Part shown: positions 18,800 through 57,628 of the stretch, piece by piece
Numbering within the stretch: the first letter of the stretch is position 1
Layout of the letters: each line of letters opens with the position of its first letter
DNA from: Eubacteriales bacterium
GTDB taxonomy: Bacteria > Bacillota > Clostridia > Oscillospirales > CAG-382
Length of the DNA stretch: 64,000 nucleotides
Direction of reading: 5' to 3'
NCBI GenBank assembly: GCA_045636665.1
Contig: JAZTXY010000086.1
Span: 72,031 to 136,030, forward strand
Program-made: the position numbers and the translations under genes
The notes under the pieces: generated by a model
What the model was told of the DNA's origin: nothing
The model's input: the letters and a program-made list of their open reading frames with translations, nothing else
Databases searched by the model: none

Positions 18800-20359
18800 A
18801 TGAAATATATCCGTAAAATATCATTAATGCTTCTTGCGTTTTTGATTACAGTGGTTTCGTTGTCGGGCATTGCTTCGGCAGAGGGAGAAGCTACGAATAA
18901 CCCCGGAATTAATTCGGGTAACGCTTTTGCGGCATACTGCATCGATGACGATCAGTTCCTTTATTCCAAGCGTCTTGACGAAAAGGTTGCGCCTACGGTT
19001 GCGACAAAGCTGGTTGCCTTAATGGTTGCGAGCGATATTCTTAAGGAGCGCGGACTCAACAGCGCCGAAACAGAGGTAACGGTTACCGCCGAGGCGATCG
19101 CAAATTCAGGCGATATTTCCGACGTGCGCGTGCCTGTAATGGGCTATTCCGAAGGCTCGGTGCGTACGGTAAGAGAGCTTTATTCGGCAACGCTGGTCGC
19201 CTGTGCAAACGATGCCATCGCCGCGATCGCATGTGATTTCGGTGAAAAGTATCTCGGCGGCGGGATTATGGAGTTCGTTGCCAGAATGAACAAAAAGGCA
19301 GAGCAGATAGGACTTCAGAATACAAGATTTGAAAATCCTACGGGACTCGATTCTCCGAATCAGTATACGACCGTACGCGAGGTCGTAAAGATAGCGGCGG
19401 CTTTTTATCAGTACGATGAGCTTGTAAAGCTTTCCGACGTTGAATCCTATTTCAACGGAAAAAGCACGGTGAGAAATAAAAACTATCTTAAAAGCAATTA
19501 TTACGTCGACGGCTTTCTTAACAAAAACGCAATAGGCCTTATCGCGGGACAGCTTAACAAGGCGGGCAATTACTGCCTTATCACCGCAAGCCAAAAAGAG
19601 GGAAGAACCTATATATACGTCGTTATGTGCGCAAGCGGTATGGTCGTAACGCGTGACGAGGAAAACCGAGTTTCCTATTCCTTCGGCGCGGGTAACGCCT
19701 ACGTTGATATGAACAAGCTTATAAGCTGGACACGAGAATCGTTTATTCTTGTTCCCATAGCGAAAACCGATGACATTGTCGGTGAGCTTCGCGTAAATTC
19801 GGGTGAAAGCGATCACGTTATGGTGGTTCCTGCCGAAAACGTCGAGAGATTGGTCAACGTTATCGGTGATACGGTCGCAATAGAAACCAAGCTTTTGCTC
19901 GATGAATCGATAGTATATAAAAAGGTGTTCAACGGCAAGGAATACGACACCATCGACGCCCCCTTGACCGCCGGACAGCGAGTCGGTACAATCGTATACA
20001 GCCACAACGGGAACGAATTGGCAAGAGTTGACGTTGTCGTAAGAGACGACATCGACGGCGACGGCTTGAAATCGGCAATGGACAGCGTTGAAAGCTTCCT
20101 TTTCGGCGACGTTATGATAACCATTCTTTATATAATCGGCGGATTGGTTGTAATTTGGCTGATAATTACTGTCGTGACTGCGGTTGTACGCGGCGTGCTT
20201 CGCGCACGCGAGTCGGGTAAGCTTAAGGGCGCCGACCATACCGAAACCGAAAAACAACCTAAGAAACAGAAAAATCAAAAGAAAAAGTCGGTCAAGAAGC
20301 CCAAAAAACCAAAGAATAACGACCTTGACGACAAAACCGCGACAAGAGAAATGCATTAA
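18800..20359 (+). CDS. S11 D-alanyl-D-alanine carboxypeptidase homologue with substituted catalytic motifs, C-terminal TM helix and Lys-rich tail
   Basis: AAGGAG RBS and a signal peptide. Collinear with DacA/DacF (ENPTGLD conserved), but SxxK is VATK, SxN is CAN and KTG is IAG. Confidence 0.7.
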   Translation: MKYIRKISLMLLAFLITVVSLSGIASAEGEATNNPGINSGNAFAAYCIDDDQFLYSKRLDEKVAPTVATKLVALMVASDILKERGLNSAETEVTVTAEAIANSGDISDVRVPVMGYSEGSVRTVRELYSATLVACANDAIAAIACDFGEKYLGGGIMEFVARMNKKAEQIGLQNTRFENPTGLDSPNQYTTVREVVKIAAAFYQYDELVKLSDVESYFNGKSTVRNKNYLKSNYYVDGFLNKNAIGLIAGQLNKAGNYCLITASQKEGRTYIYVVMCASGMVVTRDEENRVSYSFGAGNAYVDMNKLISWTRESFILVPIAKTDDIVGELRVNSGESDHVMVVPAENVERLVNVIGDTVAIETKLLLDESIVYKKVFNGKEYDTIDAPLTAGQRVGTIVYSHNGNELARVDVVVRDDIDGDGLKSAMDSVESFLFGDVMITILYIIGGLVVIWLIITVVTAVVRGVLRARESGKLKGADHTETEKQPKKQKNQKKKSVKKPKKPKNNDLDDKTATREMH

Positions 20360-28209: not shown

Positions 28210-28238
28210 AGATGAAACCAAAAAAGGAGGTTGTTCCA

Positions 28239-29780
28239 ATGAAAAAAATATTGGCATTATCAATTGTATTCGTATTTATTTTCACTTTCCTTGTAGGATG
28301 CAACGAAACGGTAGATATCGAAAGCGGCGATGAAAGCGTCGCAGAGCAGAGCGCCGAATCGAAGGACTCGGCAGTTGATAGCGAAGACGAAGGCGGTGGC
28401 GCGGAAAGCGATGACGCTTCGGTTGAATCAGACCCTGAAGAGCTAAAAATATCCGATTATTTTGCCGAGGTATTCAACAGAAATGCCGAGTCGAAAATAT
28501 ATTGTATCGACAATATAGAGCAGCTTTATAATTTTGCAAGCCTTGTTAATGAAAAGGGAATTGATTTTGACGGCGACGTTGTTTTGTTGCGTAACGATAT
28601 CGAATTGAATCCCACCGACGATATCGACGATTGGGAAAACAACCCTCCCGAAAACGTATGGGAGCCGATCGGAACGACGATTCCGTTCAAGGGGCAATTC
28701 ATCGGCGGTAGCGCGGAGAAGGTCGGAGCTATTTACTCTTACAAGACCGAAATAAAGGAAATAAGCGGTATTTATTGCTCCGACGACAAAAAAACAATAG
28801 GCTTGTTCGCAAATATCGAGGGCGCACAAATATCAAATATTAAGCTCGGCAAGGGAAAGCTTGACGGCGAAAACGAAAAGTCTTTCATTTATGCGGCGGG
28901 CATCGCTGCTTTCGCCGTTGACTCGGAGATCATCGGTTGCATTAATTATGCCGACGTTACAAGCGCATTTGCCGCGGGCATTGTATTTGATGCGACAGAC
29001 TCTAAAGTTATTTGGAGCGGTAATTACGGCAGCATATCCTCGGAAAACGGAAGCTCCGCAGGCATCGCAAACCGAATAAAAGGCGGAGAAATTTTCGGGT
29101 GCAATAACTATGGAACGATCAACGGAACCGATGCCGCAGGTATTGCATGCAATCAGGGCGGAAGCGTTATAAGATGCTGCGTAAACAAAGGAAACGTGAC
29201 GGCGAAATGTTATGGCGGCGGTATACTCGGACACAGCTCGATCGATTCGGGAGCTTCGGTATTGGCTTCCTGCGCTAACTACGGAAAAATCGTAAGCAGA
29301 GAGACAGCGGGCGGTATAATCGGTTCCGTTTGGGAAGGACAAAGCTCGCTGTGGGTAATGGACGTGCTTAACGTCGGAAACGTAGTATATGAAGAATACG
29401 GTCAGACCGATGAGCATGGTCAGACCGATGAGCGCGACCGTTTTGCAGGAGGCATTGTGGGCAGTGTTGTGCTTTGCTCGGTCGACGGCTTGGGTGATTT
29501 TCGTCTTGACGGCGCACTCAATTTAGGGCAGGTGACCGCTTCGGGCAATCACGGTGCGATAATCGGCAACGAAGGTACTCATGACTATCTCGTCGATTTG
29601 TGTGACAATTGCTTTTATCTCGATACAACGGTCGAAAAAAGCGTTATCGGCAAAGCCGTCAGAAAATCCAAGCTGACTGACACCAAAACGCTTGACGGTC
29701 TTTTGGACGGTATGAATTGGGAAATGGACGAAGAGCTCGGACATCCGATTCTTGCGAGAGATCACGTTTCGGCAGAATGA
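28239..29780 (+). CDS. GLUG-motif repeat lipoprotein (putative surface protein)
   Basis: AAGGAGG RBS. Lipobox FLVGC and an acidic linker. Repeated AAGIA/GGGILG/AGGIIG/AGGIVG GLUG-like units. AT-richer codon usage. Confidence 0.7.
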   Translation: MKKILALSIVFVFIFTFLVGCNETVDIESGDESVAEQSAESKDSAVDSEDEGGGAESDDASVESDPEELKISDYFAEVFNRNAESKIYCIDNIEQLYNFASLVNEKGIDFDGDVVLLRNDIELNPTDDIDDWENNPPENVWEPIGTTIPFKGQFIGGSAEKVGAIYSYKTEIKEISGIYCSDDKKTIGLFANIEGAQISNIKLGKGKLDGENEKSFIYAAGIAAFAVDSEIIGCINYADVTSAFAAGIVFDATDSKVIWSGNYGSISSENGSSAGIANRIKGGEIFGCNNYGTINGTDAAGIACNQGGSVIRCCVNKGNVTAKCYGGGILGHSSIDSGASVLASCANYGKIVSRETAGGIIGSVWEGQSSLWVMDVLNVGNVVYEEYGQTDEHGQTDERDRFAGGIVGSVVLCSVDGLGDFRLDGALNLGQVTASGNHGAIIGNEGTHDYLVDLCDNCFYLDTTVEKSVIGKAVRKSKLTDTKTLDGLLDGMNWEMDEELGHPILARDHVSAE

Positions 29781-29806
29781 TATGCATATTTAAAAAGTCG
29801 GGATCT

Positions 29807-29840
29807 CTTTTAAGGGGTCCCGATTTTTTTAAAAAAATAT
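29807..29840 (+). terminator. Rho-independent terminator after the GLUG gene
   Basis: GTCGGGATC...GGTCCCGAT followed by T7. Confidence 0.65.
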
Positions 29841-29880: not shown

Positions 29881-29892
29881 CAAAAATAATCG

Positions 29893-29978
29893 AATGCGTT
29901 AGACTATTTTTCCGAAAAGCTATTGACAAACCCAATCTAATGTGATAGACTATACTCGTCAAATGCATTAGACTATTT
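29893..29978 (+). promoter_or_regulatory. blaI-operon sigma-A promoter flanked by two 17-nt direct repeats (candidate operators)
   Basis: TTGACA (29923)-N17-TAGACT (29946). AATGCGTTAGACTATTT at 29893 and AATGCATTAGACTATTT at 29962. TAGACTAT occurs three times. Confidence 0.5.
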
Positions 29979-29995: not shown

Positions 29996-30358
29996 ATGGC
30001 AAACGTTCCGAAGATTTTCGAAAGCGAATACAGATTTTGTCTTATCCTTTGGGAGAATGAACCGATTGCGTCAAAGGAGCTTGTGCGTATATGCAAGGAA
30101 AAGCTTGAATGGTCGCGCACTACCACCTATACCGTAATAAAGCGTCTTGCCGAAAGGGGAGTTTTGGTTCATGACCATACTGCCGTTCGCTCGCTCGTTT
30201 CCAAGGATGACGTGCAGCTTGCCGATTTCGATGAATTTTTTGAAAAGCGGTTCGAGGGCTCGTTACCTGCATTCGTTGCGGCGTTTGCAAGACACCAAAA
30301 TCTTACCGAGGATGAGCTGAGCCTGATCCAAAGCATAATTCAACACGGAGATAAATGA
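29996..30358 (+). CDS. BlaI/MecI/CopY-family transcriptional repressor
   Basis: 120 aa. Winged-helix sequence EWSRTTTYTVIKRLAERGVL and a C-terminal dimerisation region. Immediately upstream of the M56 gene. Confidence 0.8.
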   Translation: MANVPKIFESEYRFCLILWENEPIASKELVRICKEKLEWSRTTTYTVIKRLAERGVLVHDHTAVRSLVSKDDVQLADFDEFFEKRFEGSLPAFVAAFARHQNLTEDELSLIQSIIQHGDK

Positions 30359-30359
30359 C

Positions 30360-33300
30360 ATGGCAAACTTTTTTCTTGAAATATTCAATTTGAGCTTGGC
30401 GGCTTGTTGGCTTATCGGAGCTATTGTAGCCGTGCGCGCAATTTTCGCAAAAAGTATGCCGAAGTGGCTTGTCTGCTGTCTTTGGGGCTTGGTTGCGGTA
30501 AGATTGCTTGTTCCCGTTACGCTTGAAAGCAATATATCGCTCGTTCCCAATCAACAGCTCGAGCTTTTAATCCCGAACGAAGGCATCGGCGAGGTTTCGG
30601 AATATGTTGAAGAATCGCTTCCTTCTTTTGAAGAAAATGGTATCGATTCAACTGTTTCGGCGCCTGTAACCGATGAAGCCGTGTCATCGCCCGTAACCGA
30701 CGAGGAATTTTCCGCGCCGATTGTCGATGAAACCGTTTCTTCGCCCGTAACCGACGAAGAAGTATCTTCCCCCGTAACCGACGAAGCCGTTTCTGCCCCG
30801 ATTATCGAGGAAAATGCTTCTGCGCCCGTGACCGATGAAAATATATCGGCTTCGGTTCAGGATACCGTTATCGGCGACCAAAATACCGAAGATGTCGGCA
30901 AAACCGACGTTGCAGTTAACGGCAATATCGTTCAATCGGAAAAAACGGAGCATTCAAAAAAGGTTTCGAGCAATTTTGCCACAATTGCGTTTGCGGTATG
31001 GGCAATCGGATTCTTTTTGATGCTTGAATATTCGGTCGTAAGCTATATTCTCCTCAAAAAACGCGTTGCAATGTCGTTCCCTTGCGGCGACAAGGTACGC
31101 AAAGGCGAGGGCGTGGATTCTCCGTTTATTTTCGGACTTTTCCGTCCGCGTATTTATATCCCTTTCGGATTAAGCCAAAGAACCGAAGAATGTGTTATTG
31201 CGCATGAAAGAGCGCATTTTAAACGCCGCGACTATCTTATAAAGCCCTTTGCGTTTTTCATTCTTTCGGTGCATTGGTTCAATCCCTTCGTATGGTTGGC
31301 TTATATCCTTCTTTGCCGCGATATCGAATATGCCTGCGACGAGAAGGTCGTTGACGGTCTTGACGCCGATTCGCGTAAAGCGTACGCCCTTGCGCTGCTC
31401 GAATGTGCAGTCGCGCACCGACGTATTACCGCTTGTCCCGTAGCTTTCGGCGAGACCGGAGTGAAAGAAAGAGTGAAAAATACAATGAAATACAAAAAAC
31501 CCGCATTCTGGATAGTTATTGTTTGCGTTATCGTTTGCATTGCCGTTGCCGTGCTGTTTTTAACAACGGGCGTGGGCGGAAGTGAGGATTCCGACACCTC
31601 GTCGGAGGCATCGGACACCTCGTCGGAGGCATCGGACCCCTCGTTGGAGGCATCGGGCGAAAATCAAGTTGAACAAGACGAGAAAAATTATATCGATGAC
31701 CTTTTCGCGGCTGAATTTGTCGAATACGAGGATCTCGGCAAATACCAAAACTGCGTAAGGTTTGAATCGAGCGTTGAATACAACGTAATGAGCGTGCTCA
31801 TTACACCCAAGACAACGATATACGATTTTAAAATATATTCGTTGGAAGACAATATCGATACCGTAACACTTGAAAACATTCTTTTTGAAGCAAAAAGCAT
31901 TTCCGCCGATAAGCCGCTTCTTGCGGATATTGAGTTTGGCGATATACTTGCCGAAAACGGAATATCGTTTACCGACGAAAACGGTAATGAGTATCTTTAT
32001 AAACTTGTCGATAGTGCGTACGACGGAAAATTGATAGTTTCCGACGTGACGACGGAAGCGTCCGAGGAGAGCGATGGCACCCTTATAGTAAACGGTATCG
32101 ACATTACCAAAGGAAGCGGCGTGAAAATCTATGACGACCGTGCTGAGTTGCCTTTTGTCGCTATAATGGAAGCGTTGGGAATATCGTTTGAATGGAAAAC
32201 AGACAGCACTGCCATAATGACGTACGGTTCGATTAAACCGTATCTTTTAGACGTAAAAAAAGGAGAATTGACCGACTATGTCGGAGGTGACGGCAGAAAT
32301 CACTTTACGGCATACAGCGATTCACCTCTCGGTTTTGTTTCTCTTGAAAAAGAAATATTGATTGACGATGTCAATGCTGCTGCGTTTTTCTCCGAAATGG
32401 GTTTTGTGTTCAGAATTTCTTACTTTGATATAAATTTCAAAGATAAGATTATCAGTATCGGCAGAGATACAAATGATTATAAATGCACGCTCATTGTAAA
32501 CGGAAATGATATTACCGACAGCACTCATGTAGTTATGAAAAGCGATGATGGCAATTATACGCTTTTGCCGTTCGTTGAGATTATGGAGGTGCTTGGAGCC
32601 GAATTTGAATGGGAAAGTGACTATGTTGCAAAAATAGAATTTCTCGAAATGCGGTTTGCGTTGAATGTAAAAGAATGCAAATTAATCGCCGAAGAAAATG
32701 ACGTTAATCTTATTAGTCCGCCGTTGGGAGGAACAAGAAAATTCTCTGCCGACAAGAAGGAATTAATAGTCGACAATGTTACATTAAAACAATTTTTTGA
32801 TGCCGCGGGAATTAACGCGCTATATGACTATAACAAAAAAATTGTTACGATCAGCACAAAATCTTCGGGGAACGAAGCAAGCAACAACGAACCCCACGTT
32901 CACGTTTACGGGGAATGGAAAACGGTTACTGCCGCGACCTGTCAAAGTACGGGTGTGGTCGAGCGTGTTTGCTCTTGCGGTGACAAGCAGCTTCAAAGCG
33001 TGAATATAACTCAGCATAAATACGTCAACGGCGTTTGCTCTTGCGGTGCGATCGAAAGCGCAAGCGACATCGAGGACGGAACGTTGACGTTCAGTATGAC
33101 AAACGGCGGATATAAGGTTTCGGGAAAGGGTTTTAACGGCAGCGTGGTCGTTATCCCGAGCACCTTTATGGGAAAGCCGGTTGTTGAGATTGCTCAGGAT
33201 GCATTTGGCGGAAACCGCAATATCGAAAGAGTCGTGATTCCCAAAACCGTTAAAACGATTGGTAGTCATGCGTTTTTGCATTGCTTTTTCCTTAGAGAGG

Positions 33301-34340
33301 TTATTTTTGAAGAGGGAAGCGAGCTTATAAGCATCGGCGACAGCGCGTTCAATAACACCGCGATCGTTTCGATAACACTGCCCGAGGGCTTAAAAACCAT
33401 CGGTGAGGGTGCGTTCAATTCCTGCGACGATATGAAGGAAATAACTCTGCCCTCTACGCTTAAATCAATCGGCAGTAACGCCTTCAGATACTCTACCGTT
33501 AGCAAGGTTACTGTCAAAGACATAGGCAAATGGTGCACTGTTTCGTTTGGTAACGAATATGCTAACCCTGCATATATTTCGCAAAGCCTTTATGCTCCCG
33601 ACGGCTCTTTGGTTACAAGAGTAAACGTTTCCAACGGAGCGTCCGAGATATCGGCGTATGCCTTTTGCGGAGTGAAAACCATCGAAAGCGTAAGCATTCC
33701 GTCGACCGTTAAGAAAATCGGAGTCGATGCGTTTGCAGATTGCAAGACTCTTGACGTTTATATTACCGACCTCACAAAATGGGCACAGGTTTCTGTTGCG
33801 AGTGCAGATTCTCTGCCCGGCAAGCGACTGTTTCTTAACGGTGTCGAGATAAAGGACGTCGTTATTCCCTCGGGTGTCACCTCGATAGGAAGCTATGCCT
33901 TCAGCTTTGCATCGCTTACCTCGGTCACCGTGCCCGATACCGTGAAAACCATCGGAGAGGGTGCTTTTCACTATTGCACAAATCTTCAAAGCATAAAGCT
34001 TTCAAAGAACCTTACCGAAATACCGAAGAATATGCTTTACGGTGCATCGTCGTTGAAGACGGTTGTTATTCCCAATACGGTAAAAACTATTGGTGAATCG
34101 GCATTTGAGGGTTGTATCTCGCTTGAATCGATGTTCATACCCGCAAGCGTTACCTATATCGGAAAGCACGCGTTTGAAAATTGCGGTAGCTTGAAGGAAT
34201 TTGAATTCGAGGTCAAGGACGGCTGGGTATGCGCCGCAACCGGTGGCGACTATACGGTCCATGCAAGCGATCTTTCAACATCGTATAAAACGATAGCAAA
34301 GATAAAGGATTACAATTTTGCACCGTGGGTGCGAAGATAG
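30360..34340 (+). CDS. M56 (BlaR1/MecR1-type) membrane metalloprotease fused to a ~900-aa extracellular region (Cu-amine-oxidase-N-like x2, Cys cluster, ~12 BspA-type LRRs)
   Basis: IAHERAHFKRRDYLIKPF (HExxH) sits between TM helices. LIVNGxDIT..LPFVxIMExLGxxFEW occurs twice. Repeated IPxTVKxIGxxAFxxC units run to the C-terminus. Confidence 0.8.
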   Translation: MANFFLEIFNLSLAACWLIGAIVAVRAIFAKSMPKWLVCCLWGLVAVRLLVPVTLESNISLVPNQQLELLIPNEGIGEVSEYVEESLPSFEENGIDSTVSAPVTDEAVSSPVTDEEFSAPIVDETVSSPVTDEEVSSPVTDEAVSAPIIEENASAPVTDENISASVQDTVIGDQNTEDVGKTDVAVNGNIVQSEKTEHSKKVSSNFATIAFAVWAIGFFLMLEYSVVSYILLKKRVAMSFPCGDKVRKGEGVDSPFIFGLFRPRIYIPFGLSQRTEECVIAHERAHFKRRDYLIKPFAFFILSVHWFNPFVWLAYILLCRDIEYACDEKVVDGLDADSRKAYALALLECAVAHRRITACPVAFGETGVKERVKNTMKYKKPAFWIVIVCVIVCIAVAVLFLTTGVGGSEDSDTSSEASDTSSEASDPSLEASGENQVEQDEKNYIDDLFAAEFVEYEDLGKYQNCVRFESSVEYNVMSVLITPKTTIYDFKIYSLEDNIDTVTLENILFEAKSISADKPLLADIEFGDILAENGISFTDENGNEYLYKLVDSAYDGKLIVSDVTTEASEESDGTLIVNGIDITKGSGVKIYDDRAELPFVAIMEALGISFEWKTDSTAIMTYGSIKPYLLDVKKGELTDYVGGDGRNHFTAYSDSPLGFVSLEKEILIDDVNAAAFFSEMGFVFRISYFDINFKDKIISIGRDTNDYKCTLIVNGNDITDSTHVVMKSDDGNYTLLPFVEIMEVLGAEFEWESDYVAKIEFLEMRFALNVKECKLIAEENDVNLISPPLGGTRKFSADKKELIVDNVTLKQFFDAAGINALYDYNKKIVTISTKSSGNEASNNEPHVHVYGEWKTVTAATCQSTGVVERVCSCGDKQLQSVNITQHKYVNGVCSCGAIESASDIEDGTLTFSMTNGGYKVSGKGFNGSVVVIPSTFMGKPVVEIAQDAFGGNRNIERVVIPKTVKTIGSHAFLHCFFLREVIFEEGSELISIGDSAFNNTAIVSITLPEGLKTIGEGAFNSCDDMKEITLPSTLKSIGSNAFRYSTVSKVTVKDIGKWCTVSFGNEYANPAYISQSLYAPDGSLVTRVNVSNGASEISAYAFCGVKTIESVSIPSTVKKIGVDAFADCKTLDVYITDLTKWAQVSVASADSLPGKRLFLNGVEIKDVVIPSGVTSIGSYAFSFASLTSVTVPDTVKTIGEGAFHYCTNLQSIKLSKNLTEIPKNMLYGASSLKTVVIPNTVKTIGESAFEGCISLESMFIPASVTYIGKHAFENCGSLKEFEFEVKDGWVCAATGGDYTVHASDLSTSYKTIAKIKDYNFAPWVRR
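30654..30869 (+). repeat. 27-nt (9-aa) tandem repeat x8 inside the M56 gene
   Basis: VSAPVTDEA / VSSPVTDEE / FSAPIVDET ... The copies diverge at synonymous sites. Confidence 0.85.
31593..31655 (+). repeat. 21-nt tandem repeat x3 (DTSSEAS linker) inside the M56 gene
   Basis: GACACCTCGTCGGAGGCATCG occurs twice, followed by one diverged copy. Confidence 0.85.
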
Positions 34341-34368
34341 TTTCGTGATTTCTCCTTTTAAAAGTGTA

Positions 34369-34405
34369 AGGCAGACGGGTCAACTCCGTCTGCTTTGCTT
34401 TTTTC
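34369..34405 (+). terminator. Rho-independent terminator after the M56 gene
   Basis: GCAGACGG...CCGTCTGC followed by a T-rich tract. Confidence 0.7.
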
Positions 34406-45596: not shown

Positions 45597-47150
45597 ATGA
45601 ACAGAAAAGAACTTCACGATAAGATTGCAGAGGTATCGAAAACGATTTTTTCGTACTGTATGGCGAAAACACCCACACGGGAAGAAGCCGAGGATTTATC
45701 GCAGGATATTTTGTGCGAGCTGTTGAAATCGGCGGAAAACATCCGTGATGACAGGGCGTTTTACTCTTTTATGTGGGGCGTTGCAGGAAACGTCTATAAG
45801 CAATGGTACAGGAAGAAACTAAAAAATACTGCAAGCGAATTGACAACCGAAATTCCAACGGAAGATGCTTTCATTGAAGACGAAAACAATGATATATATC
45901 TTTTGCGTCGCGAATTGACTTTGCTGTCGGAAAAACACCGTAAAGCAACGATTATGTACTATGTCGACGGACGTTCTTGCTCGGAAATTTCATCTGCGCT
46001 CTCCGTTACGGAAAATACGGTGAAATATCTGCTTTTTAAATCGAGAAAAATATTGAAAGAAGGAATGAATATGGAAAGAAATCTTGGCGAATTAAGCTAT
46101 AATCCGAAAACATTAATCCCGATGTATAGCGGTCATGGCCCTAACCAATTTTGGGAGTTTATGCAGAGTAAAATAAGACAGAATATCGTTAGCGCTTGCT
46201 ATAACGATGCGCTTACAGTTCAGCAAATCAGCCTCGAAACAGGTATCCCGCTTCCGTATCTTGACGATGAAATTAAAGAACTTGAAGACAAACAAATCAT
46301 AATTAGAGAAGGAAAACACTACAAAGCAAATGTGATTATTATAACATCCGAGTGTGCCGACGAAATTGAACGTGCTGTTGCAAAAAATCATGAACAGATT
46401 GCTGATAAAATGACGACTTTTATTAGCGACAAGTTAAATGAATATAAAAATCTTAACTTTGTAGGTCACGATTTTTCGGATAACACATTGCGATGGCAGC
46501 TTGCTACCATTCTTTTTAGAATGATCTGCGTGGTGGATTGCAGTGATACCATAGATGCACCTAAAACAGGATGGGGCGAATCTGCTTATCTTTGGTGTGT
46601 GGAGAAGTTAAACGAGAAACATATATTCTCTTATTGCGGTGTGGATGATAAACACGGAAACAGTTTATACTTTTTTGACTATTGGAAAGACCGCAAGGGA
46701 AAGGGCGATCATCACGATTTTTACGGAAAAGAACGTTATATCAATATTTTCTGTGACATCTGTCGCGAGAACCATGCTTCTTTCAGCGAATATGATCTTG
46801 AAGCAATTGCAGAAATGATAAAAAAAGGATATGTTATCAAGGAGAACGAAACTTACAAAGCCACCGTTCCTGTTTACTCTTTGGAACAATATCTAACCAT
46901 TATCAATATTGCAAAGGAATTTATATCCGCCGAACTTGTATCGATTGTTCGAGAAATGGATAAAACCGCCGCACAAATTTTAAGTGCACATACGCCAAAG
47001 CATTTGCAGAGTCAGGTGGCAGGAATTGCCTCTATGGATAAGTTTGTTAATGCCGTTTGCATTCCCGCAACCATTCTTATCGAAAGACAATTTTTGAGCA
47101 CCGCATGGCATCCTCTTGAAATGCCTGCCACATACGTTGTTTTGAAGTAA
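45597..47150 (+). CDS. Sigma-70 family (ECF-like) sigma factor fused to a ~330-aa C-terminal domain of unknown function
   Basis: AAGGAGG RBS. Region 2 (EEAEDLSQDILCELL) and region 4 (YYVDGRSCSEISSALSVTENTVKYLLFKSRKIL). No TM helix. AT-richer codon usage. Confidence 0.7.
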   Translation: MNRKELHDKIAEVSKTIFSYCMAKTPTREEAEDLSQDILCELLKSAENIRDDRAFYSFMWGVAGNVYKQWYRKKLKNTASELTTEIPTEDAFIEDENNDIYLLRRELTLLSEKHRKATIMYYVDGRSCSEISSALSVTENTVKYLLFKSRKILKEGMNMERNLGELSYNPKTLIPMYSGHGPNQFWEFMQSKIRQNIVSACYNDALTVQQISLETGIPLPYLDDEIKELEDKQIIIREGKHYKANVIIITSECADEIERAVAKNHEQIADKMTTFISDKLNEYKNLNFVGHDFSDNTLRWQLATILFRMICVVDCSDTIDAPKTGWGESAYLWCVEKLNEKHIFSYCGVDDKHGNSLYFFDYWKDRKGKGDHHDFYGKERYINIFCDICRENHASFSEYDLEAIAEMIKKGYVIKENETYKATVPVYSLEQYLTIINIAKEFISAELVSIVREMDKTAAQILSAHTPKHLQSQVAGIASMDKFVNAVCIPATILIERQFLSTAWHPLEMPATYVVLK

Positions 47151-47269
47151 TGATAGATGAACAACACCGCCGAGAATTCCTCGGCGGTTTCTTATACAAA
47201 AAAGAACGGACAGCGAAAGCCGTCCGTTTATCGTTATGGATATTTACGGGTTCAAATAATGAAACGCTT

Positions 47270-47761
47270 TTATTTTGTTACGTCTACACTCTTTGCAAAT
47301 TCAAGGATTTGGATTTTGAAGCCTTCATATTCCGAGAGGGGGGTTGCGAACTGTACGGTCCAAAAAGCGTCGTCGCCCTTGTACATTGCGGTGAGGTATT
47401 TATACGAAGTGCCTTCCTTGTTGAAAAAGCTGTATTCAAAATAGGTAACTCCGTCCGTTTCGGTAACGTCGGAGGGGGTGATGGTATCCTTGGTGCAGTT
47501 GAGCTTCATAAGGTCTGCATAACGGCCGAGAGTGTAATCTTCAAGACCTTCAAGCGCCGAAAAGGGTTCCTTGATAACCGCGACCAAAATGTTTTTTGAA
47601 TCGTAGCTTACAAAATAATTTTCGTATTCCTTTTCAAGAAACTCCGAGGTCAGGGTTATTGAAAATCCGTCCTTTTCAAAAACCTCTTGGGTAATGTTGT
47701 TACAAGATGCAAGGGAAACGAGTATTAGCGCGCACATAAAAAGCGCTATGATCTTCTTCAT
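47270..47761 (-). CDS. Lipoprotein, function unknown
   Basis: Signal peptide with lipobox LASC. I chose the ATG at 47761, which has an AAGGGTG RBS. Confidence 0.65.
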   Translation of the reverse strand: MKKIIALFMCALILVSLASCNNITQEVFEKDGFSITLTSEFLEKEYENYFVSYDSKNILVAVIKEPFSALEGLEDYTLGRYADLMKLNCTKDTITPSDVTETDGVTYFEYSFFNKEGTSYKYLTAMYKGDDAFWTVQFATPLSEYEGFKIQILEFAKSVDVTK

Positions 47762-55075: not shown

Positions 55076-55099
55076 TTACCTAAAAAGCAGGTGAATAAA

Positions 55100-57628
55100 A
55101 TGCCAAGCTCCAAGAACGGCAAACAAAATTTGGATATACTCGAGTTGCTTCGTCAAGCGGAGGAAAAAAACCACTCCGATATGAACGCAGGGACTGCCGA
55201 ACGCAAACCAGAATTGGAAAAGACGCTTGTTGCAGATTCGGAAACACCTCCCCAAAAGCGCACAAAGGTAACCAAACGCATTAATGCCGAAACAGCCGAG
55301 CTTATAGATCGGTACAGCACCAGAAAAGAAAATAAATCTTTAAGCGATACCCAAAAATTAAGAATGAAGCTTGCTGAGCAAAATGAAAATTCCGAGCTTT
55401 TGGGTTATCTTGCCGAAGAAAAACAACCCGCCAAAAGCGAGCGTGTCGACAAGCTTTATGAAATGATTAACGACGCGCGCACACGCACGCTTTCGGATCT
55501 CGAGAAAAAGCCGCCCGTGGGAATTAAATCCACGCGCTTTTCCGATGAACCCATTCCCGAAAAGCAGGAATATACTCAGGAGCAAATGTTCCCTCTCGGC
55601 GATACGATTCATTTTGATGACGATATCAATGAAACCGAGGTTGCAAGCTTTGACTCCGATTACGAGCAACTGACCGAAAAGCTCGAAAAGCGCGAAATCG
55701 ATTTTGACAACGAAAACGAAAACGAAGGTCAGGTGCGTTTCGTTGCCGATGACGATAAGCTTGAGGTTTTGGGCGAAGAGCTTGACGAAACCGATATAAA
55801 CCTTCGTCTTGCATTCGAAATGATGGAGGACGAGGAAGGCACGCTTAAAAAGATCGCGGAACGAAACCGCGAAAAGAGCAGAGCCGAAAAAGAAGGACGC
55901 GACGGTGAAAACCGCGTTAAATATACCTCGCGTGAGCAAAATTCCGAAATCGCTTCGCATTTCCGCAAGCGTATGCGTAAGTCGCTTATCCGCATTATCA
56001 TCGTCGGTATCCTTGCGCTCGGAATACTGTTTTTGGAAATTGCTTCCAAGGACAGCGGTATGCACGGCGATTTTGCAAAGCAGGGAAGATACGGAATAAT
56101 TTATATCCTTATCGATCTTCAGCTTTTGTTCTTTATCGCAATTGCGATGCTCGGCTCTATCCGCAACGGCTTATCGGGGATTTTCAAGCTCCGCTTGAAT
56201 ACCGACAGTCTGCTTGTCGTTTCAATCTTTTTTGCGGCGGCATATTCGTTGGTAACTCTGTTCGGAAACCCCTATGCGGCAGATCTTAAGCTTTATAATC
56301 TGCCTGCGGCGTTTGCGGCGTTCTGCGCGGCGGTTTCGGGCTATATGTGCGCCAAAAAGGATTACCGATGCTTCAGAATCGTTGCGTCGAAGCGTCCGAA
56401 ATATACCGCTTGCGAGCTGACCGGCGGCACGAAAGAGGCTGACGAATTTTACAAGTATCTTTTTGAAGACAGCGATATTTATACCGTTAAACGCGCTCAC
56501 TTTATCGACGGCTTCGTTGAAAGAACCGAAAAGCGCACCAAGTTTGAAGACGTTCTTAACTTTATAATTCCGCTTATCTTTTTTGCGGGCGCAGCTCTTT
56601 TTATCACAATGAGCGTGCTCGGAAGCGAAATTTACGATGCATATACCGCATTTTCGGTATTGCTCGCGGCGAGCGTTCCCGCGACCGCGTTTTTCGTGTT
56701 TACTTTGCCTACCGTTTCGGCAAACCGCGTCGGCGTGAAGCATTCAACCGCTTTCATCGGTAATGCGATAGCCGAAGAATATGCGACCGCATCGGTGCTT
56801 TCTTTTGCCGATACCGAGGTATATCCCGCAAGTCTTGTTAAGATAACCAACATCCGTATGTACGGCGACTTCCGTATCGATGAAGTGCTTACCGATATGG
56901 CGAAGGTGTTCAAATACGTCGGCGGCCCGCTTTCGAAGGTGCTTTCCGCAACCCTTAGCGAGCAGGTCGAAAACCCCAACGCGATAAGAGTTATCGAAAG
57001 CGCAAACGACGGACTTTGCGTTGCTATGGACGGTCACAACTATTTCCTCGGCAAGCGTTCTTATATGCGCCGTTACCGTTTCGAAACGATTGTTGACGAG
57101 GGTGACGATTCTTATGACCGCAACGGCGGCTCGGTTATGTACGTCGTCGTTGACGAAAAGCTTGCAGCAAAGCTTTACATTAAATATACCCTCAACCCCT
57201 TGTTCGATTCTCTCCTTCGCGATATGTACAAGGCGGGCTTGTGTCTTGGTGTAAAAACGCTCGACCCGAACATCAACAACGAAATGATCGCTTCACAGGT
57301 CAAGTTCAAAAAGTGCCCCATTTCGGTGCTTCGCGGAACCGACCCAGAGGAGGTTATGGGAGAGGTTGAAAACGCAACGAGCGGTATCGTTTGCAACTCG
57401 ACGCTTCACAATTTCCTTAAGATGTTTTCACTTTGCGATAAAGCGCGTCACGCTACCAAAAGCAATATCATCATCAGCGTGGTCAGTGTTGTGCTGTCGT
57501 TTGCCGCTGTCGCGTTCCTTTCGGTTACGGGCGCGATAGGAGCAATCACGTCGGTTCACGCGGTTGCATTCCAACTGTTTTGGCTTCTTCCGATATGGTT
57601 GATATCGTTTTTGATGTTAAGAAAGTGA
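55100..57628 (+). CDS. Degenerate P1B-type ATPase homologue (no phosphorylation, CPC, TGES or GDGxND motifs) with a ~300-aa acidic N-terminal extension
   Basis: AGGTG RBS before the ATG at 55100. Collinear with CopA-type pumps: FKLRLNTDSLLVVSIFFAAAYSL; AASVPATAF in place of ACPCALG; SFADTEVYPAS in place of DKTGTxT; KTLDPN in place of TGDN. Confidence 0.65.
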   Translation: MPSSKNGKQNLDILELLRQAEEKNHSDMNAGTAERKPELEKTLVADSETPPQKRTKVTKRINAETAELIDRYSTRKENKSLSDTQKLRMKLAEQNENSELLGYLAEEKQPAKSERVDKLYEMINDARTRTLSDLEKKPPVGIKSTRFSDEPIPEKQEYTQEQMFPLGDTIHFDDDINETEVASFDSDYEQLTEKLEKREIDFDNENENEGQVRFVADDDKLEVLGEELDETDINLRLAFEMMEDEEGTLKKIAERNREKSRAEKEGRDGENRVKYTSREQNSEIASHFRKRMRKSLIRIIIVGILALGILFLEIASKDSGMHGDFAKQGRYGIIYILIDLQLLFFIAIAMLGSIRNGLSGIFKLRLNTDSLLVVSIFFAAAYSLVTLFGNPYAADLKLYNLPAAFAAFCAAVSGYMCAKKDYRCFRIVASKRPKYTACELTGGTKEADEFYKYLFEDSDIYTVKRAHFIDGFVERTEKRTKFEDVLNFIIPLIFFAGAALFITMSVLGSEIYDAYTAFSVLLAASVPATAFFVFTLPTVSANRVGVKHSTAFIGNAIAEEYATASVLSFADTEVYPASLVKITNIRMYGDFRIDEVLTDMAKVFKYVGGPLSKVLSATLSEQVENPNAIRVIESANDGLCVAMDGHNYFLGKRSYMRRYRFETIVDEGDDSYDRNGGSVMYVVVDEKLAAKLYIKYTLNPLFDSLLRDMYKAGLCLGVKTLDPNINNEMIASQVKFKKCPISVLRGTDPEEVMGEVENATSGIVCNSTLHNFLKMFSLCDKARHATKSNIIISVVSVVLSFAAVAFLSVTGAIGAITSVHAVAFQLFWLLPIWLISFLMLRK

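Follow-up and report, generated by a model that had tools for sequence, protein, structure and literature searches.

A BlaI-like repressor gene and an M56 protease gene with a modular, leucine-rich repeat-tipped ectodomain as a candidate non-canonical BlaIR system of Clostridia

BlaR1-type signalling is understood only for beta-lactams, and about 94% of the M56 proteins lack the beta-lactam sensor, with a ligand known for none of them. What a BlaR1-like protease responds to when another ectodomain stands in the place of this sensor is the question raised by a locus in a 64,000-nucleotide (nt) stretch of the genome of a Eubacteriales bacterium (assembly GCA_045636665.1, contig JAZTXY010000086.1, positions 72,031 to 136,030), the whole of which is termed the window below. 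At this locus, a gene for a BlaI-like repressor of 120 amino acids (aa; 29996-30358, + strand) is followed by a gene for an M56 (BlaR1-like) membrane metalloprotease of 1,326 aa with a modular ectodomain (30360-34340, + strand), as identified by Pfam and by homologues. With a probability of roughly 60%, as judged from sequence comparisons, this pair represents a non-canonical regulated-proteolysis switch of the BlaI/BlaR1 family (BlaIR), which serves a purpose other than beta-lactam sensing and is gated by its extracellular arm. The kind of system is known; what is new is this arm and the variability of the outer modules on a conserved core.

The upstream open reading frame (ORF) of the pair ends with a TGA codon according to the ORF list and the sequence, and one base (30359) separates this stop codon from the ATG codon of the M56 gene. 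The downstream ORF is open over 3,981 nt. A GGAG box is located 8-9 nt upstream of the start codon in both genes, and these boxes, together with the 1-nt spacing, suggest that the two genes are probably translationally coupled. The repressor, which consists of a winged-helix N-terminal domain and a C-terminal dimerisation domain, matches Penicillinase_R of Pfam (PF03965) with an E-value of 6.9e-19 (68.7 bits against a cut-off of 22.6, profile positions 4-114 of 115), and its residues 7-116 align with MecI (1okr) and BlaI (1sd4). Its scores with the NCBIfam models of BlaI, MecI and CopY are below every cut-off, and its score with TIGR02698 (CopY_TcrY) is 40.3 bits against a cut-off of 121.95. 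The C-terminal CxCx4CxC motif of the CopY type is absent, and the C-terminal half of the repressor contains no cysteine residue. The scissile bond of Staphylococcus aureus BlaI, N101/F102 (the slash marks the bond), aligns with the A/F pair of the repressor in FVAA/FARH, which is a putative cleavage site. The pairing survey comprises 95 M56 ORFs in 86 loci of other Clostridia (protein lengths 310 to 2,063 aa). The P1' residue, which is located at the position of F102 of S. aureus BlaI, is Phe in 87 of the 88 BlaI-like proteins of these loci, and the P1 residue is Ala in 75 of them.

The M56 protein matches Peptidase_M56 of Pfam at residues 174-373 with an E-value of 1.3e-42 (146.5 bits against a cut-off of 31). 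H282ExxH286, D291, E323xxxD327 and Y342 of this protein align with H201ExxH, D210, E242xxxD246 and Y261 of BlaR1 (phmmer against 8exp and 8exs). The structure of S. aureus BlaR1 determined by cryo-electron microscopy contains a cytoplasmic active site with H201ExxH and E242xxxD and the supporting residues D210 and Y261 (PMC9834060). The catalytic and supporting residues of the M56 protein are invariant or nearly so in 16 aligned homologues, and both HExxH....D and ExxxD are found in 94/95 of the surveyed M56 ORFs. According to Kyte-Doolittle hydropathy, the first two transmembrane (TM) helices, TM1 (aa 11-29) and TM2 (aa 37-55), are joined by a short K/R-rich loop (30390-30524, + strand) and are followed by an expanded extracellular loop (aa 56-205; 30525-30974, + strand), which is the equivalent of extracellular loop 1 (EL1) of BlaR1. 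TM3 (aa 206-228), a gluzincin domain predicted to be cytoplasmic and TM4 (aa 383-401) are encoded by 30975-31562 (+ strand), as defined by alignment to 8exp and 8exs and by motif conservation. This region contains HExxH at 31203-31217 and ExxxD at 31326-31340 within the gluzincin domain and a conserved PVA/FGE loop at 31443-31454, near the position of the autocleavage loop of BlaR1 (all on the + strand). The region of about 155 aa between TM3 and TM4 is basic and contains a hydrophobic re-entrant segment (aa 300-318). The four TM helices, the re-entrant segment and the charge distribution agree with the layout of BlaR1, as judged from hydropathy only. The [LVI]AFGE loop is present in 64/95 of the surveyed M56 partners, and the P1-P1' pair A/F of the repressor is identical to the pair in the PVA/FGE loop of the protease itself.

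EL1 of the M56 protein contains an acidic repeat with a period of 27 nt and 6.9 copies at 30654-30839 (Tandem Repeats Finder), which encodes 7-8 nonapeptides of the VSxPVTDEx type between TM2 and TM3. The alignment with BlaR1 and the placement of TM2 and TM3 indicate that this repeat is an expansion of EL1, which corresponds to residues 56-96 in S. aureus BlaR1 (PMC9834060). HExxH is located at residue 282 in this protein as against a median of residue 201 in 94 relatives, and an enlarged EL1 is also found in about a quarter of the surveyed M56 proteins. The copy number of the nonapeptide differs between alleles. No transpeptidase domain (PF00905), penicillin-binding protein (PBP) domain, beta-lactamase domain or SxxK sensor is detected in the M56 protein by Pfam at E<=0.01. 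The NCBIfam scores of the protein are 70.4 against a cut-off of 400 for blaR1_generic, 38.1 against 1,200 for MecR1 and 18 against 1,200 for BlaR1, and these matches are confined to the M56 part.

Instead of a penicillin-binding sensor, 925 extracytoplasmic residues follow TM4. The first module is an S/D/E-rich linker (aa 402-440; 31563-31679, + strand) with a 21-nt tandem repeat in three copies at 31593-31656 (DTSSEAS x3, 95% matches). In the close relatives, a YD/RHS-repeat module of about 360 aa (about 1.1 kb) is located exactly at this repeat, and modules seem to be gained or lost at low-complexity linkers. The second module is a juxtamembrane beta-sandwich (aa 441-566; 31680-32057, + strand), termed the stalk here, which is modelled by AlphaFold2 (AF2) with pLDDT values of 80-97 and is kept in all close alleles. 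The stalk has no Pfam family and no fold match in the Protein Data Bank (PDB) at E<0.001, and only 82 representatives are found among 1.84 billion proteins. In most of these representatives, the stalk forms the C-terminal end of a small protein, and the consensus N-terminus resembles a lipoprotein signal. An M56 domain is absent from 71 of the 73 stalk-bearing proteins that were newly identified and scanned. The stalk thus looks like an unannotated extracellular domain family, as judged from its model.

The stalk is followed by two copies of a Cu_amine_oxidN1-like (CuAO-like) module (aa 574-706 and aa 710-838; 32079-32873, + strand), which form an internal repeat with 30% identity. Their LIVNGxDIT...LPFVxIMExLG..FEW motifs begin at aa 575 and aa 711. 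Cu_amine_oxidN1 (PF07833) is matched with an E-value of 1.1e-7 (32.1 bits against a cut-off of 24.2) at aa 713-788, namely in copy 2, with no stretch significant singly. The CuAO-like region has no sequence match in the PDB, and the CuAO-like pair is common only to the window allele and the alleles L006 and P0005. The next module is a Cys/His cluster (aa 845-897; 32892-33050, + strand) with the sequence motif HVHVYGEW..ATC..C.CG..C.CG, in which the cysteine residues are C861, C871, C873, C893 and C895. This cluster is 94-96% identical in L006 and P0002-4, and the same type of Cys motif precedes LRR_5 in other homologues, such as P0024, P0035 and P0081. The AF2 pLDDT values are below 50 over the CuAO-like and Cys regions, which are not confidently modelled because just one other sequence covers them in the alignment.

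The distal end of the M56 protein is a head of leucine-rich repeats (LRRs) of the BspA type (aa 900-1326; 33057-34337, + strand), which is supported by Pfam, AF2 and Foldseek and consists of 12 units and a C-terminal cap. LRR_5 (PF13306) is matched with an E-value of 1.7e-73 (245 bits against a cut-off of 27.7) in three stretches, and twelve xxIGxxAF units with a repeat length of about 23 aa are located between aa 941 and 1275. The LRR head is modelled with AF2 pLDDT values of 85-95. Its Foldseek matches, with E-values of 1e-15 to 1e-8, are the gut-bacterial surface proteins 4gt6, 4fs7 and 4h09, PcpA of the pneumococcus (4cp6) and TpLRR of Treponema pallidum (6mlx), and the probability is 1.00 for 4gt6, 4fs7, 4h09 and 4cp6. 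None of these matched structures has a defined ligand that is transferable to the LRR head. In sequence, the head is related to thousands of stand-alone LRR_5 surface proteins, a subset of which contains dockerin, FIVAR or Flg_new modules. LRR_5 ectodomains related to 33075-34337 are also fused to a Ser/Thr kinase domain (Pkinase) in P0283 and P0284, which indicates that LRR_5 serves as an extracellular module in more than one kind of bacterial signalling protein.

A sequence-only reading of this locus had proposed a BlaI/MecI/CopY-type repressor of 120 aa that is separated by 1 nt from a partner of 1,326 aa, and the coordinates are exactly as proposed. The proposed BlaR1/M56 layout with its zinc motif, the loop of acidic 9-aa repeats between early TM helices and the replacement of the beta-lactam sensor by about 900 aa are all borne out by the matches described above. 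The two CuAO-N-like motifs, the Cys cluster and the approximately 12 LRRs, which were also proposed, are located directly, with Pfam support for copy 2 only in the case of the CuAO-like pair. The statement that the distal two-thirds of the gene is visibly AT-richer than the core genome is weak. The GC content is 0.442 in this part, 0.479 in the N-terminal third and 0.465 in the window (standard deviation 0.020 in 2.7-kb windows), so that the distal part deviates from the window by only about one standard deviation. The GC content at third codon positions is equal (0.481 and 0.486 for the distal two-thirds and the N-terminal third respectively), and the difference is explained by the amino acid composition. 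A foreign origin of the distal part on the basis of base composition is therefore rejected.

The promoter region of the pair suggests how the repressor may act. The best promoter match in the region is of the sigma-70 type (TTGACA, 17 nt, (TG)TAGACT; 29923-29951, + strand), which matches the consensus at 10 of 12 positions, has an extended-10 TG and has a -35 element that is invariant in the orthologues. Three operator-like dyads are associated with this promoter on the + strand. O1 (ATCGAATGCGTTAGACTAT, 29889-29907) is located upstream of the -35 element, and its TAGACT core is invariant in four orthologous promoters. O2 (ATCTAATGTGATAGACTAT, 29935-29953) overlaps the spacer and the -10 element and is nearly invariant in L001, L002 and L003. 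O3 (GTCAAATGCATTAGACTAT, 29958-29976) is located just downstream of the -10 element and is the best palindrome, with a single mismatch from a perfect 16-bp palindrome; CGTCAAATGCATTAGAC in it is invariant in four orthologous promoters. Three direct copies of ATGYRWTAGACTAT are located at 29894, 29940 and 29963 with spacings of 46 and 23 nt, and each of them is the right half of an imperfect dyad of the form RTC-N10-GAC. These three copies, as compared with 0.57 expected by chance in the 64-kb window, are all located in the promoter of the operon, and no copy is found elsewhere in the window. At three orthologous loci, the promoters show no change in the motif cores or in the -35 element, but the bases around them vary, with a mean column identity of 79% over the region. 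In a metagenome-wide scan with the invariant 16-mer, all of the at least 120 matches listed are chance matches, except for one orthologous promoter, L135.

For two BlaI-family repressors of Clostridium thermocellum, the half-sites GTCTAT and GACTAT have been identified by DNA affinity purification sequencing and electrophoretic mobility shift assay; these sites are paired dyads in the promoters of the repressors themselves, and the regulons are very small and self-regulating (PMC8457756). The GACTAT half-site of the dyads in the window agrees with these experimentally defined motifs (PMC8457756). Because the dyads fit this pattern, autorepression of the operon by its repressor via the three dyads is a well-supported inference. 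A hairpin with a T run behind it (29789-29832, + strand), in which the arms of the inverted repeat I1 are 21 nt long and 81% complementary, is located upstream of the promoter, and it probably terminates the transcript of the upstream lipoprotein gene and so isolates the blaI operon. An intrinsic terminator with a 14-bp stem, seven GC pairs and a following TTTTTT (34366-34398, + strand) closes the operon and is kept in L006. The hairpin on the 5' side and the terminator on the 3' side indicate that the unit is a two-gene operon.

The locus can be compared between related genomes, all of which are metagenome-assembled genomes (MAGs) labelled as Clostridia or Eubacteriales bacterium, one of them from a water-buffalo rectum sample. 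It is syntenic in four related assemblies with a flank identity of 78-95% at the nucleotide level. The order is a TldD/PmbA pair, a lipoprotein gene (not in L002), blaI (120 aa), the M56 gene, OAD_beta, a gene for about 175 aa, GH77 and GFO/IDH/MocA. L006, which is the GTDB representative with the most similar ectodomain architecture, resembles the window on the upstream side alone (91.6% nucleotide identity). At L006 12930-14008, the similarity stops right after the operon terminator, and unrelated sequence is found in place of OAD_beta, so that the locus also varies at its downstream junction. The amino acid identity across the alleles is 76-98% for the repressor, 79-95% for the TM/protease core, 50-98% for EL1 and 63-99% for the stalk. 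Beyond the stalk, the heads differ. The head consists of the Cys cluster and LRR in P0002-4, of the CuAO-like pair followed by the Cys cluster and LRR in L006, of the CuAO-like pair only in P0005, of a bMG3/CarboxypepD_reg-like region in P0006 and P0012, of DUF5050 in P0011 and P0015, of a double Cys motif and a different LRR-like tail in P0008, P0023 and P0026, and of a small unknown domain in P0009 and P0010, and P0013 has nothing beyond the stalk. The LRR identity between alleles is 83-87%. Thus, at one and the same locus, related genomes carry different mosaic alleles of the ectodomain.

The window allele is itself a recombinant with a crossover near 31,300, because the sliding-window nucleotide identity switches from L002-like to L006-like at this position. 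From 29950 to about 31300, the window is 97-99% identical to L002, of which the head is bMG-like, except over the acidic repeat array (about 30550-30850), where the identity falls to 61-87%. The identity to L006 from 29950 to about 31300 is only 58-92%. Between about 31300 and 32056, the identity of the window is 98-100% with L006, as compared with 81-99% with L002. Beyond 32056, the window remains L006-like, with amino acid identities of 93%, 84%, 96% and 87% over four modules. The YD/RHS-repeat module, which is located between the linker and the stalk in all close relatives, is absent from the window allele.

The frequency of such systems was surveyed in two ways. When GTDB species representatives were scanned with the M56 part alone, 547 relatives were confirmed. 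In the pairing survey, a BlaI-family gene is located directly upstream of 85/95 M56 ORFs and within 5 kb of 91/95. The LRR head of the window is matched in only four of the surveyed M56 proteins by a single-sequence search, which is of limited sensitivity. When the full-length protein is used as the query, the M56 plus LRR_5 architecture is found in 37 of the 120 best homologue clusters, and a Penicillinase_R gene adjoins the M56-LRR_5 gene in 7/7 examined cases. Among these cases are four distant M56-LRR_5 fusions, whose best local alignments to the window protein show 36-45% identity. All four are paired with a Penicillinase_R gene, and three of these pairs are isolated two-gene units in unrelated neighbourhoods. 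At a distant M56-LRR_5 locus, L209 1934-8220 (JGI Ga0307249_10002598; P0014), the BlaI-family gene is located 3' of the M56 gene, and the next gene upstream, which has the same orientation, codes for an LRR_5-dockerin protein of 671 aa. This dockerin protein could be a co-regulated, cellulosome-associated partner.

Pairs of M56-LRR_5 and BlaI-family genes recur in gut and rumen Clostridia, which indicates that the system is not categorically new. Kurtz et al. 2026 describe about 15,000 M56 proteins with 254 C-terminal architectures, of which only about 6% have a transpeptidase sensor, find a BlaI homologue within five genes for 96% of the M56 proteins, characterise CenIR as one example, and infer that the cues of BlaIR systems are diverse and unknown (PMC13492132). 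The pairing counts obtained here agree with this published 96%. LRR_5 is outside the nine common M56 architectures of that paper (PMC13492132), and the literature search returned no paper dealing with an M56-LRR fusion and none joining BlaR1, M56 and leucine-rich repeat. The proposal of the sequence-only reading that the locus encodes a candidate undescribed proteolytic switch is overstated, because the class was published in 2026 and M56-LRR_5 fusions are recurrent.

The mechanism that would follow for the pair is that a repressor dimer binds the three GACTAT-type dyads flanking or overlapping the promoter, so that the operon represses itself, as suggested by the conservation of the dyads and by the experiments on homologues. 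The protease domain is predicted from the homology to BlaR1 to face the cytoplasm and, when activated, to cut the repressor at the conserved Ala/Phe pair in the dimerisation domain. This cleavage would derepress the operon and any distal genes bearing the operator. The least certain step is that the long ectodomain with its expanded acidic EL1 gates the activation from outside. The conservation pattern across the alleles suggests a division of labour, in which the TM core, EL1 and the stalk would form the transducer, and the two CuAO-N-like copies, the Cys cluster and LRR_5 would together act as a replaceable head that binds a macromolecule, either a protein or a glycan surface, rather than a small molecule. 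Recombination between related strains would exchange the heads and couple the same output to different cues in each strain.

Several points weigh against this mechanism. The P1 residue of the repressor is Ala as opposed to Asn in S. aureus, and the cleavage site is placed by alignment alone. The AF2 model has no confident inter-domain contacts (pTM 0.46). EL1 of S. aureus BlaR1 docks into the active site of the sensor, and no counterpart of this contact is demonstrable in the window protein. The operator search, which was limited to the 64-kb window, reveals no target gene besides the operon itself. CenIR, the only well-studied non-canonical system, has no known inducer (PMC13492132), so that gating by the ectodomain is hypothetical for the whole non-canonical class.

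A bolder form of the arm-gated switch can be proposed tentatively. The repressor, the protease core, EL1 and the stalk may constitute a fixed chassis, onto which gut Clostridia recombine LRR_5, CuAO-N-like, YD-repeat, DUF5050 and bMG/CarboxypepD-like heads, so that in closely related strains the same output, of which positive feedback on the receptor would be a part, would be linked to distinct macromolecular cues that originate from the host, the diet, phages or neighbouring cells. If this is true, the locus represents a naturally modular, allelically diversified receptor system, which has not so far been described for the BlaIR family.

A possible alternative, of clearly lower probability, is that the arm serves primarily in surface binding or adhesion, in the manner of other surface proteins of gut Clostridia with LRR_5, YD, DUF5050 or bMG-type modules, and that the M56/BlaI pair monitors the arm, for example through tension, engagement, or loss by shedding or foreign proteases, with re-synthesis of the arm as the main output. 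The head variation would then reflect diversifying selection on an exposed surface protein by phages, immunity or niche and not a change of signal. Consistent with this alternative, the sole operator sites in 64 kb are those of the operon's own promoter, and three of the distant M56-LRR_5 pairs are isolated two-gene units in unrelated neighbourhoods. The nearest solved folds are those of surface proteins or of adhesins such as PcpA, and the closest sequence relatives of the head are stand-alone surface proteins bearing a dockerin, FIVAR or Flg_new module. Exposed surface proteins are also typically mosaic between alleles and variable in the number of their repeats. The turnover of S. aureus BlaR1 is controlled by shedding of its sensor by signal peptidase (PMC9834060). 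However, the operator search covered 64 kb of the genome, so that distal regulon members are possible, and the canonical bla and mec systems autoregulate as well. Adhesion by the arm is hypothetical, and the machinery is the same as that of the arm-gated switch, from which this alternative differs mainly in what is regarded as the signal and as the output.

It is rather improbable that, as has been proposed for CenIR-type systems, the TM core, EL1 or the stalk responds to a membrane or wall cue, or that the protease has a low constitutive activity, with the heads as passengers that localise or shield the protein. The finding that, outside the cell, only EL1 and the stalk are conserved across the alleles, whose heads are entirely different, points to such a sensor of the envelope state, as do the P0013 allele, which stops right after the stalk, and other alleles with short tails. 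The C-termini of most M56 proteins are short or unstructured, and cell-envelope genes are under the control of CenIR (PMC13492132). In contrast, intact, in-frame heads of 300-900 aa are kept in many lineages, and M56-LRR_5 fusions recur independently, which argues for a function of the heads. P0013 and P0007 are derived from short contigs and may be truncated or frameshifted.

An assembly chimera across repetitive linkers, or a decaying gene, is very unlikely. The source is evidently a MAG, as are the relatives, the gene contains low-complexity repeats, and the linker-to-stalk junction without the YD module is unique to the window among the close relatives. Nevertheless, the ORF is open over its whole length with intact catalytic residues, and the stalk-CuAO, CuAO-Cys and Cys-LRR junctions recur in the independent assemblies L006 (about 91% nucleotide identity) and P0002-P0005. 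The sequences flanking the YD module in the relatives are mutually dissimilar, so that a repeat collapse is unlikely, and the distant relatives P0015, P0016, P0023 and P0026 share the order from M56 to the stalk without the YD module. A response to beta-lactams (BlaR1/MecR1) or copper (CopY), which is suggested by the family-level homology of both proteins and by a D-Ala-D-Ala carboxypeptidase gene about 10 kb upstream of the operon (18800-20359), is rejected on domain content and has hardly any probability left, because the transpeptidase/PBP domain, SxxK and the CopY cysteine motif are absent, the NCBIfam scores are far below the cut-offs (40 against 122 bits for CopY), and no beta-lactamase or PBP2a gene is found within the operon or divergent from it by Pfam and the ORF list.

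The setting of the operon is the core chromosome of a spore-former, in which YqfD, SpoIVA, EF-G and GSIII are encoded within the 64-kb window. The neighbours of the operon are a lipoprotein gene, TldD/PmbA and OAD_beta. The lipoprotein gene (28212-29780, + strand), which is located immediately upstream, encodes a predicted lipoprotein of 522 aa with a signal ending in FLVGC and repeated motifs of the AAGI/GGI type. This protein has no match in Pfam, NCBIfam or PADLOC, and no operator motif is found upstream of its gene. The gene is kept in L001, L003 and L006 and is missing in the closest relative, L002, which indicates that the upstream flank is variable as well. None of the repressor, the M56 protein and the lipoprotein matches a defence model of PADLOC-DB. 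Further downstream, 45597-47150 (+ strand) encodes a protein of 517 aa with regions 2 and 4 of an extracytoplasmic function (ECF)-type sigma-70 factor in the first 155 residues and an extension of about 360 aa without a Pfam match, and an abutting ORF of 149 aa follows (47150-47599, + strand). A sigma factor may thus be joined here to an unusual anti-sigma or sensor part, either by fusion or as a separate partner. An ORF of 845 aa with a GTG start (55091-57628, + strand) is located between an ORF of 260 aa and the EF-G gene and has no Pfam match at E<=1e-5.

The locus offers recognisable binding modules instead of short, disordered tails like that of CenR. The head-swapped alleles on a nearly constant transducer represent a natural domain-swap experiment that could reveal if an M56 protease is controlled from outside the cell, and by what means. 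If the heads set the signal specificity, the pair would provide a compact two-gene scaffold with which Gram-positive bacteria could be engineered to sense macromolecular cues. Otherwise, the pair is one more uncharacterised member of a family common in gut Clostridia.

The pair resembles the canonical BlaI/BlaR1 and MecI/MecR1 systems of S. aureus and Bacillus licheniformis in that the repressor and M56 genes are adjacent and co-oriented, and the gene order is blaI-blaR in the window and blaR1-blaI in S. aureus. The repressors share the winged helix, the C-terminal dimerisation domain and a conserved Phe, which is located at a putative P1' position in the window repressor. The proteases share the gluzincin motifs HExxH...ExxxD, the supporting Asp and Tyr residues and an equivalent of the autocleavage loop, and hydropathy predicts for the window protein the same four TM helices, with the loop from TM2 to TM3 and the C-terminal ectodomain outside the cell. 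Operator-like dyads over the promoter and autoregulation, which is deduced from the sequence for the window, are further likenesses. In contrast to the canonical systems, the window pair has neither a penicillin-binding sensor nor a beta-lactamase or PBP2a target gene. Its EL1 consists of 150 aa with acidic tandem repeats, whereas that of BlaR1 consists of 41 aa, its ectodomain of 925 aa is multi-modular, unlike the BlaR1 sensor, and its predicted P1 residue is Ala instead of Asn. The operator half-site is of the TACA/TGTA type in S. aureus, and that of the operator-like dyads in the window is of the GAC/GTC type.

The pair is closer to the non-canonical BlaIR systems, namely CenIR of Clostridioides difficile, mycobacterial BlaIR and PvmSR of Pseudomonas aeruginosa, a second atypical system described in a 2026 preprint, all of which combine an M56 protein lacking a transpeptidase domain with a BlaI-like repressor. 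It agrees with the definition of Kurtz et al. 2026, an M56 protein without a transpeptidase domain and a BlaI-family gene within five genes, with a spacing of 1 nt in this case. It differs from CenIR in that the C-terminal region of CenR is short and mostly disordered, whereas the window protein has 925 aa of binding modules, and allelic exchange of heads, which is present at the window locus, is not reported for CenIR-type systems. The head shares its repeat family and fold with the BspA-type LRR_5 surface proteins (4gt6, 4fs7, 4h09, PcpA 4cp6 and TpLRR 6mlx). However, these proteins are stand-alone, secreted or anchored, and lack a signalling domain, whereas the LRR of the window protein forms the distal end of a membrane protease. 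A functional analogy is provided by the RsgI anti-sigma factors of Clostridium (Acetivibrio) thermocellum, which are described as single- or multi-pass membrane sensors of Clostridia. In these sensors, exchangeable extracellular modules (carbohydrate-binding modules and others) report insoluble or macromolecular extracellular substrates to a cytoplasmic transcription switch via proteolysis. The analogy is limited to function, because the machinery described there, an anti-sigma factor with SigI and RseP, is unrelated to the M56 and BlaI pair.

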